DNA of 64,000 bases from assembly GCA_963706955.1 (NCBI GenBank), contig CAVPOC010000005.1:120477-184476 (forward strand), given 5' to 3'. Position numbers and translations under genes: made by a program. Source of the DNA: an uncultured Verrucomicrobiae bacterium (GTDB taxonomy: Bacteria; Verrucomicrobiota; Verrucomicrobiia; Chthoniobacterales; Terrimicrobiaceae). The notes beneath the pieces are model-generated. The model made no database searches. It was not told where the DNA came from and worked only from the letters and a program-made list of their open reading frames with translations. Of this stretch, positions 14,108 to 24,731 are shown one piece after another (the first letter of the stretch is position 1; each line of letters starts with the position of its first letter).

Positions 14108-14524
14108 TTAAAAATCAGGACGGTTGGGAGAAAGAATTCGGATCTTCGGAAAATAGTCGCGCAGGTACCCTCGGTCGTCCGTTGCCAGCAAATCAGCTTG
14201 GGTGGCAGCATGTGCACCAACAAGGAAATCCGGCAGAATCGTTGTCCGTGGCCCGCCCTCCTTCCGGTAATTCCGGAAGATGCGTCCAGCCAGGTTGGCC
14301 GCCTCTTCGCTCAGCGCGCTGTGTCGTAGATCAAGGTCACTAAGGGCGGTCCGGCAGGCGCCGTCTGATGGGAAGAACGACCGGATCTCCGCAAGCACCA
14401 CCGAGGAAACCAGCAGAGAGGCAGCTTCCGCGGCGGTTTGCAGACATTCGAGCCAGCGCTCTCCTGTCGGTTCACCCTTGAAGATCGCCAGCAGGACGGA
14501 AGTATCAACCGCGATGACGCTCAC
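14108..14524 (-). CDS. vapC: PIN-domain toxin (VapC family)
   Basis: AVDTSVL, LAEI, LPDFLVGAHA and LATDD motifs; overlaps the antitoxin stop. Confidence 0.9.
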   Translation of the reverse strand: MSVIAVDTSVLLAIFKGEPTGERWLECLQTAAEAASLLVSSVVLAEIRSFFPSDGACRTALSDLDLRHSALSEEAANLAGRIFRNYRKEGGPRTTILPDFLVGAHAATQADLLATDDRGYLRDYFPKIRILSPNRPDF

Positions 14525-14787
14525 CGGCGGTTTCTTTTCCGCCGGCCTTTGGGCAACTCGACCGGGCCGCGCAGTTCCTCCAGAAGATCAGTCACGCTGC
14601 GACCTTCAAGCTCCGTCTTAAGGCAACCGAGCACCCTCCTTTGCTTCCGACGATCAACCACCTTGCGCAGCCTGATTCCATCCTCTCTGGCGGCAAAGTC
14701 AATCTGTGCCCCAGGTTCAATACCGAACCGGTCTCGCAACTCCTTGGGAATGGTAACCTGACCTTTCGAGGTGACCTGCGCTTTCAT
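14521..14787 (-). CDS. AbrB/MazE/SpoVT-family antitoxin
   Basis: VTSKGQVTIPKELRDRFGIEPG motif directly upstream of the PIN gene. Confidence 0.9.
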   Translation of the reverse strand: MKAQVTSKGQVTIPKELRDRFGIEPGAQIDFAAREDGIRLRKVVDRRKQRRVLGCLKTELEGRSVTDLLEELRGPVELPKGRRKRNRR

Positions 14788-14793
14788 AACAAG

Positions 14794-14822
14794 AATGTAA
14801 GAATCGTCGGTTAGAATGACAA
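14794..14822 (-). promoter_or_regulatory. Sigma70-type promoter of the TA operon (probably a leaderless mRNA)
   Basis: TTGTCA-17 bp-TACATT, ending 6 nt before the ATG at 14787. Confidence 0.55.
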
Positions 14823-14992
14823 GTAATACCTTGATCGGCCGAAAGACGTTTCGATCGGCACCTGACCGCGCATCAGGTCAACCGTGGTAGCCCACCGAAG
14901 AAGTCACTTGAAATAACATCCAGGCCCGTCCTGCGCGCTCGCAAGATGAACCACAAATACTGGCCGCCGATCCGCTGAATGTCATATGTCAA

Positions 14993-16721
14993 CGGGCTGT
15001 TGCCCAAACAGGACGAGTTCTGGCGTGAAAAATGCTTAGGGATGGAGTGAGCTATGAGTGGGTCAATGGCAGAAGCCGACCGAGCTGTGGGTCGGAACCG
15101 AAAAAGATTAGGCAGACGAATTTGGCCTTAGATCAGTTTGCTAAGAAAGAGCAATGGAGTACTCGATGCTTGTGGTTCGTTTGCCGCGAAGTGATCCTCA
15201 GGCTTTTACGGGAGCAATGGCCACGATGTAGGTCGATCCTGAATGCTTTATCACCAGAGTCTGACGCTCCAGCGGGCTCGCTTAAAGATGTGCTGCAGCG
15301 AGCGCGCGCTCGATGCGAATTGTGCCGCTGCGCTTGAAATCATCTGCCGGCGCTTACGGTCAGAGCGGGCTTGCGAGGAATGGGATTGCTGGCTCACAGT
15401 GTATCCTGAGCCTAGCGCGCATAGCGCTTGAGGGATGCGACCAAGTTCTTATGACGCGTGCAGAACTGTCGCAGCCTGCAGCGTCGCGCAGTGTGTCCCC
15501 GCTGCGGGCCGATATTCGATAGCAGCCACGCTTGGCATCAAAGTGGTGCCTGTAAAGTCGCGGCGAATCTCTCCCGCAACTCGGGCATCGAGGTAGTAGT
15601 CCGGCTGCGAGGCTGAGTAGAGCTAAAGTGTTCTGGAGCGAGATAGATTACCATGGCTGCGCGCATTGCAGCAGTTTGCTGCGGTCAGATCGAAAGCTGC
15701 ACATGCGCCACCGACCATGACTCGACGGTGTGTCCGAAAGCAATCAGGGTAGGCCGTACTCCCTGCCGTAGCGGCTCGTCGGCTACCTGCCGACCTTGGT
15801 CTTGGCAGCGGTGACGCCGCTCATGTCTTTCGACGGGAGCTGTCGATGAAGCTCAGCTGAGCTTCATCGACAGCTCCCGTCGTTAGTCGTGATCGCCGTC
15901 ACCACTGCCAAGCCTAGGTCGTCAGGTAGCCCGATGAGTCGTTATAGGAGGGAGTACGGCCTGCCCTGACTGGTGCCGGACCACCGTCGAGTCAGGGTCG
16001 GTGGTGCATGCGCAGCTTTCGATCTGACGCGAGCCCCCGCTGCAATGCGCGGAGTCCAAGGTCTTCTATCTTGCTCCTGCTCACTCAAGCTCTACTCACC
16101 TGCGCCGAAGCCGACCACCTCGATGACTGGTTGCGGACGCATTCGGCGACGAGAGAGGCATCACAGATACCAGCTTTGTTGCCATCGACCAGGCTCCGCA
16201 TGCAACACACTGCTCGACGCTCCGGGTAAAGAGCCGCTCAAAGACTTGCAGGATCCCCAACAGTTTGCGCGCTTTGCTCAATACACTGTGAATGGGGATC
16301 TCATCCTCAAGCGCGTACGCGGGCCTAGGAACCACTAGATAAAGCCAAGCGCAGCGGCACAATCCCCGCATAGCTCGCTCTGACCGCATGCGCTGCGCAC
16401 ATGGTTTCGAAAGAGCAGGAACATCAGCTTGATGCCGCCATGCATCACGGGGTCGACCGAGCCCGCTGGCGCGGATTGCTCCCGTACAAAGCATTCAGGA
16501 TCACCTCATCGCGGCGCATCAAAACCCGAGGATCATCGCCAAAAACCACGATTGCATCTATTCTTAGCGCTTAATCGGATACTGGCTAAGGCCAAATTCG
16601 TCTGCCTAAGCTTTATCGGCTTCCGACCCACAGCTCGGTCTGCTTCTGCTCAATGGCCCATCAGAGCTAACTCCATGCCTAAGATTTTGCCACAAGCTCA
16701 TCCTTTTTGAGCAACAGCCCG
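14993..16721. repeat. 1.73 kb imperfect palindrome / foldback element with IS-like ends and TCAA flanking duplication
   Basis: Perfect 52-bp palindrome at 15831-15882. Arms match in reverse complement out to CGGGCTGTTGCCCAAA...TTTGAGCAACAGCCCG. TCAA at 14989-14992 and 16722-16725. Confidence 0.85.
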
Positions 16722-16729
16722 TCAAGAGC

Positions 16730-16771
16730 TGACCCCAGGTGCTAAGTGACCCTAAATGCTAAGTGGGGTCA
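16730..16771. repeat. REP-like short inverted repeat TGACCCC...GGGGTCA
   Basis: TGACCCC at 16730 and GGGGTCA at 16765, with TGCTAAGTG present twice between them. Confidence 0.5.
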
Positions 16772-16802
16772 CCCCAAGTGGGTCGATCCGTTACAGAGGA
16801 GC

Positions 16803-17222
16803 TTAGACCAGATTGATCGCTACGTCGATGTTGCCGCGAGTTGCGTTGGAATACGGGCACAACTGGTGCGCCGTTTCCACCAACGTCTGAGCGAGTTCGC
16901 GCTCCAGACCCGGCAGGCTGACGTTGAGACGGGCCGCGAGGGCGTAAGCGCCGCTGGTTGTACCCAGGTCCACTTCCGCGTCGATTGCGACGTCAGGCGA
17001 GAGAGCGACCTTCTTTTGGCCGGCGGCGAACTTTAACGCGCTGAGGAAGCAGGTCGACCAACCCGCGGCCAAGAGCTGCTCGGGATTGGTGCCAGTGCCC
17101 GCAGTGCCGGGAGGCGACACCTTAACATCGAGTCGCCCGTCGTCGGTGCGCGAGGCTCCGCCCTCTCGGCCACCGGTGGTATGAGCTTTGGCGGTGTAGA
17201 GCACTGTTTCGAGTTTCGTCAC
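16803..17222 (-). CDS. ohr: Organic hydroperoxide resistance protein (Ohr/OsmC)
   Basis: LYTAKAHTTGGREG, GTNPEQLLAAGWSTCF and AHQLCPYSNATRGN; GTG start. Confidence 0.9.
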   Translation of the reverse strand: MTKLETVLYTAKAHTTGGREGGASRTDDGRLDVKVSPPGTAGTGTNPEQLLAAGWSTCFLSALKFAAGQKKVALSPDVAIDAEVDLGTTSGAYALAARLNVSLPGLERELAQTLVETAHQLCPYSNATRGNIDVAINLV

Positions 17223-17289
17223 GGTAAATTCCTTTCCTGGTCGAGTTTGATGTTTTTTGAAGGACTTGTCGGCTGTGCGTATTTTATGA

Positions 17290-17620
17290 CGTTCGTTGAT
17301 CTCCAAAATAACTTGAATGATGGCCGCTGTCCCGATTGGCAAACTCTGAACGCCGACGACCCTCGTACATGACCATTTTCGTCGCCAAAGAGTTGCACGA
17401 ACAGATCTGGTGCACCGTCAGCGACGGCGGCGTGCTCGACAGAGAGGTTTCCTCCGGGCCGTCTAGTGATGGGAAGTTTCTTATCCACTACCGGAAGCAT
17501 CCCGCTCAGAAACAGCAGGGAGCCGACCTCGGAAAGCGTGACATAGGCGCCCAAGGCGCCGGGGCGATTGGGAGGTACCTAACCGAGTTCGCGCAACCGC
17601 GAAGCCAGTTTGACGGCACA
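17290..17620 (-). pseudogene. RidA/YjgF-family remnant with internal deletion
   Basis: GAYV...LLFLSGMLP is followed abruptly by VADGAPDLFVQLFG...H.R; frameshifted. Confidence 0.6.
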
Positions 17621-20168: not shown

Positions 20169-20540
20169 TTACGCGACATCGGCCGAAAGGCAGAAACGGC
20201 GGACCTCGCTATTGAACACATCGGGTTGCTCCATGTTGCTCACGTGCCCAGCGTTCGAGATGATGGCAAGCTGCGCATTGGGGATCGACGCATGGAGCTG
20301 CCGCGCGATGTGCAAGGGACTGCGACGGTCATCATCGCCCTTCAGCACCAGTGTAGCCACGTCGATGTTCGGTAGCAGATCTGTCGTATCGACCTCGGCG
20401 GACGACAACGACATGGCTGAATCGCTCGGCATGCGAACGATAAAACTCCTGCGCCAGCCGCCCCAAGACAAGCCGAGGATGTGCGCCCGCTCAATCCCGA
20501 TAACGTCCAGAAACCCTGCTAGAGATTGAGAATAGCTCGC
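20169..20540 (-). pseudogene. Alpha/beta hydrolase remnant (internally deleted)
   Basis: AHILGLSWGG joined to TLVLKGDDDRRSP...NAGHVSNMEQP; no N-terminus. Confidence 0.6.
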
Positions 20541-20582
20541 GGTGGTGAACGGGTTAGGCGGGTCTGAGGATAAACCCGCGAC

Positions 20583-20843
20583 ATGTTCGCGATCTACGAT
20601 GCAAATGGCGACGGGTACATCACCGAGGCGGAGTTTGTCGCCGACGGCGGCACGCCGAGCATGTTCCGTGAGTTGAATGTCAGCGGCACCGACAAGCTCA
20701 CGAAGGACGAGGCGATGAAGAGCGCGTTCATTCGCAATCGGGTCGCGGCGCCATTCGACGAGGCCGACGTGAATCATAACGGCTACGTGACCTGGGAGGA
20801 ATTCCAAGTCGCGCTCGCCAAGCGGCGCGCCTACGTGCGTTAG
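20583..20843 (+). CDS. EF-hand protein, probably N-terminally truncated
   Basis: DANGDGYITEAE and DVNHNGYVTWEE loops. Confidence 0.6.
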   Translation: MFAIYDANGDGYITEAEFVADGGTPSMFRELNVSGTDKLTKDEAMKSAFIRNRVAAPFDEADVNHNGYVTWEEFQVALAKRRAYVR

Positions 20844-21844: not shown

Positions 21845-23449
21845 ATGCCCCCCCTTGATGTGACCGGTTCAAACGGACCGGAGACCGATCGTGAGGTCAT
21901 CCTGGAGATGAGCCGGATTACCAAGAAGTTTGGCTCGACTCAGGTCTTGACCGAAGTGGACTTCGCTCTGCGAAGGGGCGAGATCCATGCTTTGATGGGC
22001 GAGAACGGCGCAGGTAAGTCGACCTTGATGAAGATCGCGGCCGGGCTAATCGACGATTTTGAGGGCGAGATTGCGGTCGATGGCAGCCCCGTGCACCTGA
22101 ACTCTCCGCGGGCGGCGACGCGGGCGGGCATCGCGATGATTCAACAGGAACTGAGCTTGGTGCCGGAGCTAGCCGTGGACGAGAACATCTTTCTCGGCCA
22201 GGAGAAACGAGGTGGCCTATTTTTTTTGGTAGATCGGCACCGCCAGATCGAAGCGACGCGGGCGGTTCTCGCGCCGTTGGATTTCCAGGCGCGTATCGAT
22301 CAGCCGGTGACCCGGCTGCGCGTCGGTGAACAGCAATTGGTCGAGATCGGCAAAGCGCTCGTATCGAAAGCCCGGATCTTGATAATGGACGAACCGACCT
22401 CGGCATTATCGATTCACGAGACGGAGCGTTTATTTGCGGTAATCCGACGGCTCTCCGGCGAGGGTGTTGCCATCGCTTACATTTCTCACCGCATGGAAGA
22501 GGTCTTCGCCCTGGCCCATCGGGTTACTGTTCTCCGCGATGGACGCTTGATCGGCACGTTGGCCGCCCGGGAAGCTAACCGACGGGAAGTGATCCGCATG
22601 ATGGTGGGCCGCGAACTGCAGGAGGTTCTCGCCTCCGGCAAAGCCGACGCGTCTACTCGGCAACCGGTTCTCCAAGTTCGCAACCTCCGGCTGGAGCACC
22701 CAGCCCCGACCCCGAGCCGGCCGATGCTAGTCGATCGGGTTTCGTTCTCCGTCGCAGCTGGCGAAGTGCTCGGATTAGCCGGATTGCTCGGGGCCGGGCG
22801 AACGGAAACCTTGGAAGTGCTTTTCGGCCTCCATCCGGAATTCGCCGACGGCGAAATCTTCGTCAATGGCCGGCGAGTGTCGGTGCGAAATCCGATCGAA
22901 GCCAAGCAGCACGGGATTGCATTAGTGACCGAGGACCGCAAGCGTGACGGTCTGATCCTTGGCGCCGGCATCGATCGAAATGCCGAGCTGACGGTGATGC
23001 GTTCGGTGTCGCGTTTCGGAATCGTCTCCCGACGCGACGAGCGCGAGGTTGCCCTGCGGACCATCCAGCAACTCGGCATTCACGCTAGAGGCCCAGAGCA
23101 GGTCGCCGGCACGCTCAGCGGTGGTAACCAACAGAAGCTGGTTATCGGAAAATGGCTTCAGGCTGCTCCAAGAATTCTGCTTCTTGACGAGCCAACCCGC
23201 GGGATCGATGTGGGCGCTAAGGCAGACGTTTATCGCCTGATCCAACAACTCGCCGAGGAGGGCCTGGCGATCGTGCTCGTATCGTCGGAATTGCCCGAGC
23301 TAATCCTGTTGAGCGACCATATCCTTGTCTTGCGAGAAGGTCTCCCAACGGCACGGTTGAATCGATCGGATTTTCTCCATGAGACCATTCTGGAATACGC
23401 TTCGCCCGGCGGGCCGGTCCAACCCGAATTTGCGGAGGTAGCCGCATGA
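21845..23449 (+). CDS. Sugar ABC transporter ATP-binding protein (RbsA/MglA type)
   Basis: GENGAGKST, MDEPTSAL, LSGGNQQK and DEPTRGIDVGAK. Confidence 0.95.
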   Translation: MPPLDVTGSNGPETDREVILEMSRITKKFGSTQVLTEVDFALRRGEIHALMGENGAGKSTLMKIAAGLIDDFEGEIAVDGSPVHLNSPRAATRAGIAMIQQELSLVPELAVDENIFLGQEKRGGLFFLVDRHRQIEATRAVLAPLDFQARIDQPVTRLRVGEQQLVEIGKALVSKARILIMDEPTSALSIHETERLFAVIRRLSGEGVAIAYISHRMEEVFALAHRVTVLRDGRLIGTLAAREANRREVIRMMVGRELQEVLASGKADASTRQPVLQVRNLRLEHPAPTPSRPMLVDRVSFSVAAGEVLGLAGLLGAGRTETLEVLFGLHPEFADGEIFVNGRRVSVRNPIEAKQHGIALVTEDRKRDGLILGAGIDRNAELTVMRSVSRFGIVSRRDEREVALRTIQQLGIHARGPEQVAGTLSGGNQQKLVIGKWLQAAPRILLLDEPTRGIDVGAKADVYRLIQQLAEEGLAIVLVSSELPELILLSDHILVLREGLPTARLNRSDFLHETILEYASPGGPVQPEFAEVAA

Positions 23450-24731
23450 ACACGATGGTCGGGCGCATCTTCAAGTTTATTTTGACGACCAAGCTTTTCT
23501 GGGGTCTGGCTGTCCTTTACGCGACCGGGGTGATCCTGTCGCCGGTAAACAATAAAGGAATTAACATCTTCCTGAGTCCGGGTAACCAAGCCGATGTGCT
23601 GCGACAGGTTTCCAACAACGGCATCATCGCTGTCGGGATGACACTGGTGATTCTCACCGGTGGAATCGATCTTTCGGTCGGCTCAATGATGGCGCTTGGG
23701 TTCAGTTATTTGCGCCATGCTTCTGACTCAGCAGGGATGGACGAACGCATCGTTGTTTTCCATTCCGATCCTGGCCGTGATGTGCGTCCTGCTGTGTCTA
23801 TACTTGATCCCTATGGTTGCGATGAATATGCCCGGCGCGGCGCATCGCAGCAGCGAAAAACCGCCCACCAAGATCGTCGCTGCGGGGGCTGTGGTGGGTA
23901 TTATTCTGGCCGCTCTCGCGGTTGCCTGGACGATCGGACAGCTCGAGCCGAAATTTGGTGTTCTCGGCGTGCTCATTACCGTGCCGGCTGTGGGGTTTGC
24001 GCTAGGTGCCTTGAACGGCGTCATCATCGCCAAGGGCCGCCTCCAACCGTTCATCGTCACCCTCGCGATGATGGTTGCGATTTTGGGACTGGCGCGATTG
24101 CTGGCCGGCCAGGATGCGGCGGTTTATCCCGTCTATACGGGTTCGAATGCGACCGAAGACTTTGACGTGTTGCGGGCGCTGGTCTTTAACGTTGTGCCTG
24201 TCCCTGGGATTTTCTTTCTGCTGGCCGTTTTCCTCTTCGGCTTTGTTTTAAAGGTAAGTACTTTCGGCCGGTACGTCTATGCCATTGGAGGCAACGAACA
24301 AGCAGCGCGACTCGCCGGTATCCAGGTCGATCATGTCAAGATCGCCGTCTACGCGATCTCCGGGAATGCTGGCAGCTTTGGCCGGTGTTCTCTACACCGC
24401 ACAGTACCGCCAGGGAAAGCCAGACGCCGGCGTCGGAGCAGAGCTGGATGCCATCGCAGCCGTGGTGATTGGCGGGACTAACCTCATGGGCGGCAGAGGA
24501 TCCATGACTGGCACGCTCGTCGGCGTGCTGATCTTCGGCTTTCTGGGCAACATTCTGCTGCTTAAAAATATTGACAGCAACACGCAGCTGGTCCTCAAAG
24601 GGCTGATCATCCTTGGAGCCGTGCTGCTTCAGGAAGGGCAGATGGCTGGTTGGCTGAGACGAATTCGACCACGCGTCGACAAGACGCCCGAGAAAAAGCC
24701 CGCTGTGGAAGCAGTCGGGACTCAACGATGA
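23446..24731 (+). CDS. Sugar ABC transporter permease; two +1 frameshifts (~23700, ~24362)
   Basis: GGIDLSVGS, FGRYVYAIGGNEQAARLAGI and ELDAIAAVVIGG are spread over three consecutive frames. Confidence 0.85.

Follow-up and report, generated by a model that had tools for sequence, protein, structure and literature searches.

The 1,729-bp loop-less palindrome at positions 14993-16721 of the window (the whole analysed stretch of 64,000 nucleotides, which is C5:120477-184476 of genome G000, an assembly of 4.16 Mb in 15 contigs) is, to judge from its sequence, very probably (about 0.9) a consensus artefact, in which an insertion sequence (IS) of the IS1182 family would have been blended base by base with its own reverse complement. 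What underlies it is real and ordinary, namely an IS1182-family element inserted at a TCAA target site, with tips, a target duplication and an empty-site allele.

As it stands in the assembly, the element consists of two inverted arms, 14993-15856 and 15857-16721, which meet at an axis at 15856/15857 and have a perfect palindrome of 52 bp at their centre (15831-15882). When the left arm is globally aligned with the reverse-complemented right arm, the 917 columns comprise 659 matches, 153 mismatches and 105 gap columns, corresponding to an identity of 72% overall and of 81% when only aligned pairs are counted. At the tips, which form terminal inverted repeats at 14993-15017 (plus strand) and 16697-16721 (minus strand), the first 11 bases (CGGGCTGTTGC) are identical and complementarity is recognisable over approximately 25 bp, and the 4-bp sequence TCAA abuts the element both on the left (14989-14992) and on the right (16722-16725). 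No other long palindrome without a loop is present in the assembly. The first-pass annotation had described this structure correctly, including the position of the axis, the perfect centre, arms of about 865 bp that remain complementary to their ends, and the direct TCAA flanks, and its view that the IS-like termini and the 4-bp duplication belong to a transposable element is borne out as well, since the corresponding empty site also exists. Its description of the palindrome as non-coding stands insofar as no open reading frame (ORF) inside 14993-16721 exceeds 132 aa, but the label is misleading because pieces of an IS1182-family transposase, though frameshifted, are recognisable in its interior.

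The same annotation had read many of the arm differences near the centre as compatible with G-U pairing in a plus-strand transcript, and had proposed a non-autonomous foldback transposon or a rod-like RNA or ssDNA element. The 153 arm mismatches include 27 that would be G-U pairs in a plus-strand transcript, 30 that would be so in a minus-strand transcript and 96 of the transversion type, so neither a G-U excess nor any other RNA signal is present in the arms, and the strand-biased G-U or compensatory changes by which a rod-like RNA or ssDNA element would be recognised were not found among these differences. An Rfam scan of 14500-17300 (E ≤ 1) yielded only sub-threshold noise of miRNA-hairpin and DUF805b type, with E values of 0.06 or weaker, and an RNA family for this region was rejected on that ground. 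Pfam likewise gave no family for the three largest ORFs that the element has on its plus strand (101, 121 and 93 aa), and these were rejected as genes.

The key to the structure lies in its relatives. A search of the whole genome for copies and for a transposase, which had been proposed in the first-pass annotation, was successful: BLAST with one arm revealed one further locus, C2:154337-155861 (1,525 bp), which was matched in both orientations, has the same tips and carries a transposase ORF of 482 aa. Among the 61 genomes considered (G000 and 60 relatives), copies were found in G000 and in four others of the same genus (G004, G009, G010 and G018). The tip motif recurs at the ends of the copies in C2 of G000 and in all four of these genomes, and TCAA is present on both sides of each of the three copies of which both ends could be read (the window copy, the C2 copy and the one on G009:C2). 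The window copy and the C2 copy are collinear in reverse orientation, with 92% identity over 1,560 aligned columns, and nearly all of the length difference between them is due to single bases that only the window copy has. When left (L) and right (R) arms of the window copy (1) and the C2 copy (2) are compared over aligned pairs, L1 and R2 are 90% identical, R1 and L2 95%, L1 and R1 81%, and L2 and R2 only 64%, the last with a negative alignment score, which means that each window arm is closer to its counterpart in C2 than to its own partner arm. Since the window arms resemble the opposite arms of the C2 copy and the latter's own arms are unrelated, the C2 copy represents this element in reverse orientation and is not a palindrome.

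We denote as X the intact C2 copy, oriented like the window copy, and as rc(X) its reverse complement. When X and rc(X) are aligned globally, 899 positions match, as compared to 897-932 when the window copy is aligned with shuffled rc(X); X is without self-complementarity, and its match to rc(X) is at the level of chance. A self-inverted BLAST of 19 relative loci, besides the window's own L002 and L014, detected no palindrome across the element, and the other self-inverted matches at the relative loci were short and located outside the IS. An explanation by two diverged arm types (A and B) that would be older than the duplication was considered and has been superseded by the intact ORF and by the comparison with X and rc(X) described below.

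The transposase gene identifies the family. Oriented like the window copy, the C2 copy has its 482-aa ORF on the minus strand, where it spans almost the whole element; the product of this ORF scores 306.3 bits against the NCBIfam model NF033551 (IS1182 family transposase, cut-off 270) and matches Pfam families PF13751, PF05598 and PF01609. IS1182 transposases are DDE enzymes with an N-terminal DUF772 and a C-terminal DDE_Tnp_1_6 domain. Several relatives have a long transposase frame (433-507 aa), such as the G009 copies with ORFs of 507 and 433 aa, and others are truncated or frameshifted, including the copies with broken frames in G004 and G010 (e.g. G004:C11 and G010:C4). The window copy keeps only frameshifted pieces of the gene. 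The longest of these, an ORF at 16096-16494 (minus strand) from the N-terminal DUF772 region that is broken by extra bases, aligns in BLASTP with residues 93-176 of the intact protein (47/90 identical, 52%, E 7e-20). From the transposase score, the inverted tips of about 25 bp and the 4-bp duplication it follows that the element belongs to the ordinary insertion sequences of the IS1182 family and has a length of about 1.5 kb. The intact sister agrees with this family in having PF05598 and PF13751, a length of approximately 1.5 kb, terminal repeats of about 25 bp and a direct duplication of 4 bp, and the window copy has the family's terminal inverted repeats, its short target duplication and an empty site. 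The window copy differs in being 204 bp longer than its sister, in being palindromic and in lacking an intact frame, departures that are fully accounted for by an admixture of reverse complement.

These relatives also bear on the proposal of a foldback element. Bacterial MITEs and REPINs and eukaryotic foldback transposons resemble the window copy in their terminal inverted repeats, target duplication and apparent lack of coding capacity, but in those families the palindromic, non-coding form is the unit that is repeated, whereas the relative loci found here are without a palindrome and several have an ORF of 433-507 aa. The relatives are thus ordinary, non-palindromic IS1182-family elements with a full-length transposase gene, and neither of the two element types suggested in the first-pass annotation is supported for the window copy.

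Three other repeats were noted along the way. The locus G009:C21:50757-51453 (L003, 1501-2208) is a solitary IS piece of about 700 bp with a single terminal repeat, hence a truncated copy, and it matches both window arms, as is predicted if the window copy is a merge of two orientations. In G004:C7:417162-419860 (L009, L018 and L016), about 1.4 kb separates the matches to query positions 224-716 from those to 745-841, probably because something has been inserted into this IS copy. Elsewhere in G000, C4:166804-167232 and C4:169638-170066 form an inverted repeat of 429 bp with 99.3% identity and arms that are 2.4 kb apart, a candidate for a composite transposon or an invertible segment.

The composition of the window copy was resolved by aligning it with X and, independently, with rc(X). 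Relative to X, the window copy shows 1,397 matches, 110 mismatches and 222 insertions, and 330 of these 332 non-X bases, with all 222 insertions among them, match rc(X) in an independent global alignment (0.99), as compared to 160-192 and 159-193 for the same 332 positions in two sets of shuffled controls. Per base, 475 positions can be derived from X only, 330 from rc(X) only, 922 from both and 2 from neither, which accounts for 1,727 of the 1,729 bases. Along the 1,729 nt, X-only and rc(X)-only bases alternate with 250 changes of source, which corresponds to a granularity of about 7 nt, and such changes occur in each of the twelve bins of 144 nt. In the perfect 52-bp palindrome, which would be the centre of the merge and at which the intact copy has no palindrome, the right half is identical to the intact IS, and in the left half bases of the IS itself are interspersed among those of its reverse complement. 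All but two bases of the window copy thus stem from the true sequence or from its reverse complement, the two being finely interleaved, and such a pattern arises only from a consensus in which both orientations are superimposed. At mismatching columns the X base was kept in 265 cases and the rc(X) base in 108; because of this preference, the transposase gene at the window site is probably on the minus strand.

Natural decay can hardly produce such a composition. Degenerate copies with broken frames do occur in the related genomes, as mentioned above, and one could imagine an IS pseudogene in which small insertions and substitutions happened to raise self-complementarity. The natural diverged copies, however, match rc(X) merely at chance, with 144/246 non-X bases for the copy on G009:C2 (0.59, control mean 142) and 129/222 for that on G004:C11 (0.58, control mean 130), against 0.99 for the window copy. 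Furthermore, all 222 length differences between the window copy and X are insertions, the opposite of the bias towards deletion that is usual in decaying bacterial DNA, and the remaining sequence is nearly identical to X. We regard decay by chance as so improbable that it can practically be dismissed. A true ancestral palindrome that has decayed was rejected also, since it would need a retained and perfectly complementary mirror partner for every base that was lost in X.

A palindrome that is physically present and maintained in the chromosome, whether as a non-autonomous foldback form derived from the IS or as a rod-like ssDNA or RNA element, would fit the clean flanks, the IS tips and the target duplication that the deposited assembly displays. 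Against it stand the 250 source switches at such a fine scale, and the origin of 330 of the 332 non-IS bases in the reverse complement, since decay of an ancestral palindrome does not give such complementary sets. We are aware of no biological mechanism by which a sequence and its reverse complement, which are not homologous, could be interleaved so finely. The non-palindromic state of all relative loci that were searched, the lack of both a G-U bias (27 versus 30) and an Rfam family, and the failure to find the interior in any contig of four public runs (see below) argue in the same direction, and we consider a physically real palindrome very unlikely. Equally hard to accept is that an IS1182 element and its reverse complement were interwoven in cells by some templated process and then remained stable in a bacterial chromosome: X and rc(X) are not homologous and presumably cannot pair or recombine along their length, which makes interleaving by biology implausible.

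Independent information on the site was obtained from contigs of four public metagenome runs from four studies (X1, X5, X6 and X7), which were placed on the window at a minimum likeness of 80%. These are short-read contigs from other samples or of uncertain origin in which rare variants are dropped, so that absence of a sequence from them is no proof. None of the indexed public runs contained more than 0.40 of the sampled words of 14400-17300, a region of 2,901 bases, 1,172 of which lie in the flanks; only 34 of the window copy's own 1,699 31-mers occur in X or rc(X). The flanks were covered for 99-100% in the four runs, with 0-2 differences in X5, X6 and X7. Since the immediate flanks are free of errors in comparison with these public contigs, the assembly is not of poor quality everywhere. 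An empty-site allele, as predicted in the first-pass annotation, was found in a contig of X6 (1,248 nt), in which position 14987 is joined to 16721 with a single TCAA, skipping 1,733 bases (1,729 + 4), and X7 has a joint that resembles it with a short side of 30 nt. The occupied site is represented in X5, where contigs pass from each flank into the IS tips, over about 25 nt on the left and 90 nt on the right.

The interior as printed in the assembly was reproduced by no short-read contig of the four runs, and the contigs that could be placed on it require the gaps that X predicts. The mismatches and gaps observed were 17/48 for 15793-16365, where 19/50 were predicted from the X track, and 3/24 for 15942-16224 (predicted 4/24); further pieces on the X track gave 12/8 for 15345-15482 (predicted 13/8) and 19/23 for 15236-15482 (predicted 23/23). 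A piece at 15069-15223 followed the rc(X) track instead, with 13/11 observed and 15/11 predicted. The segment 15564-15757 had no contig cover and was left out of the evidence.

Artificial palindromes are known from long-read sequencing, and a chimeric read of the classical type, in which a sequence is followed by its own reverse complement because of folding back or a missed adapter, might have been built into the contig. Foldback and palindromic artefacts of long reads, such as those from missed adapters, strand switching or chimeras of whole-genome amplification, are documented (PMC12870357; PMC6218980). The artefacts described there concatenate a sequence and its reverse complement, whereas in the window copy the two are superimposed base by base between fixed flanks. 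A concatenated pair would be twice the length of the repeated sequence and would have unique sequence on one side only; the window copy has 1.13 times the length of the IS, its two unique flanks follow each other in the right order and are joined in the empty-site contig of X6, and each arm interleaves both halves of the IS. A read of this classical kind is therefore a very improbable source of the palindrome. The superimposition within fixed flanks indicates a consensus or polishing step rather than a chimeric molecule. The first-pass annotation had itself named a fold-back read artefact as something that would overturn its interpretation; an artefact of assembly or reads is indeed the best-supported reading, but its classical fold-back form is disfavoured.

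Under the blending of two orientations that we prefer, the site carries an IS1182-family IS of about 1.5 kb with terminal inverted repeats of about 25 bp and a TCAA duplication, and this IS and its reverse complement would have been overlaid between the fixed flanks in a single consensus. Bases supported by one orientation alone would be retained as insertions, and where the aligned bases differ, one or the other would be picked. Such an overlay is expected to yield an imperfect palindrome without a loop, some 13% longer than the IS, with its axis exactly in the middle and all reading frames destroyed. The cause may be sought in reads that contain the IS in both orientations within the population and that were forced into alignment by a partial-order or polishing consensus, or alternatively in a purely computational error. 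When the union of X and rc(X) was simulated by global alignment under seven scoring schemes, the products were 1,640-1,811 bp long, as compared to the actual 1,729 bp, and had an identity of 0.745-0.813 to the window sequence, where X alone gives 0.800 and shuffled sequence 0.69-0.71. This naive simulation with seven schemes thus fitted the window sequence no better than X alone. The portions of the literature covered by our search gave no description of a base-level merge of two orientations.

Regarding the target, most copies of the IS have inverted half-sites on either side at a constant distance, in the arrangement GGGTCA ... TYRA / IS / TYRA ... TGACCC. In the window these half-sites are at 14975-14992 and 16722-16740, and they are also found in the flanks of loci L001, L004, L006, L008, L009, L010, L012 and L018. 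The empty-site contig of X6 retains them, and they are consequently part of the target; that they belong to the IS was rejected for the same reason. Targeting of an abundant REP-like palindrome (GGGTCA N6-16 TGACCC) was tried and rejected too, as this motif has no matches in the window and 3 in the genome, which is close to chance. The arrangement suggests that the IS prefers a rare palindromic target. Because GGTCA and TGACC half-sites surround TCAA and make the target roughly palindromic, insertion in either orientation is possible; it is conceivable, although we lean slightly against it, that both orientations of the IS really occur at this one site in the population and that the two alleles were merged by the assembler.

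Directly left of the insertion, 14108-14787 (minus strand) encodes a MazE/AbrB-type antitoxin (88 aa) and a PIN-domain toxin (138 aa) in frames that share 4 bp, a pair that resembles VapBC, and directly right of it an OsmC-like gene is located at 16803-17342 (minus strand). Further along the window, a BPD_transp_2 gene (PF02653; an ABC permease for sugars or branched-chain compounds) at 23446-24481 (plus strand) is split over two overlapping frames and stops short, one frame matching profile positions 4-43 and the other 37-188 of 269, which hints at a frameshifted pseudogene or at an indel error in the assembly. An alpha/beta-hydrolase ORF at 20169-20807 (minus strand) matches only the C-terminal end of its Pfam family (Abhydrolase_1, positions 192-244 of 245), and is possibly another broken gene.

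The case carries a caution, since a consensus step can give a mobile element the appearance of a giant palindrome with terminal inverted repeats and a target duplication. For similar finds a cheap and decisive test is at hand, which is to take the bases at which the suspect sequence departs from an intact sister copy and to see if every one of them fits that copy's reverse complement. The biological significance is modest: an ordinary IS1182-family element has inserted between a toxin-antitoxin pair of the PIN/MazE type and an OsmC-like gene. If both orientations are truly present at this single site, it would be a small but real case of orientation-independent IS insertion into a palindromic target.
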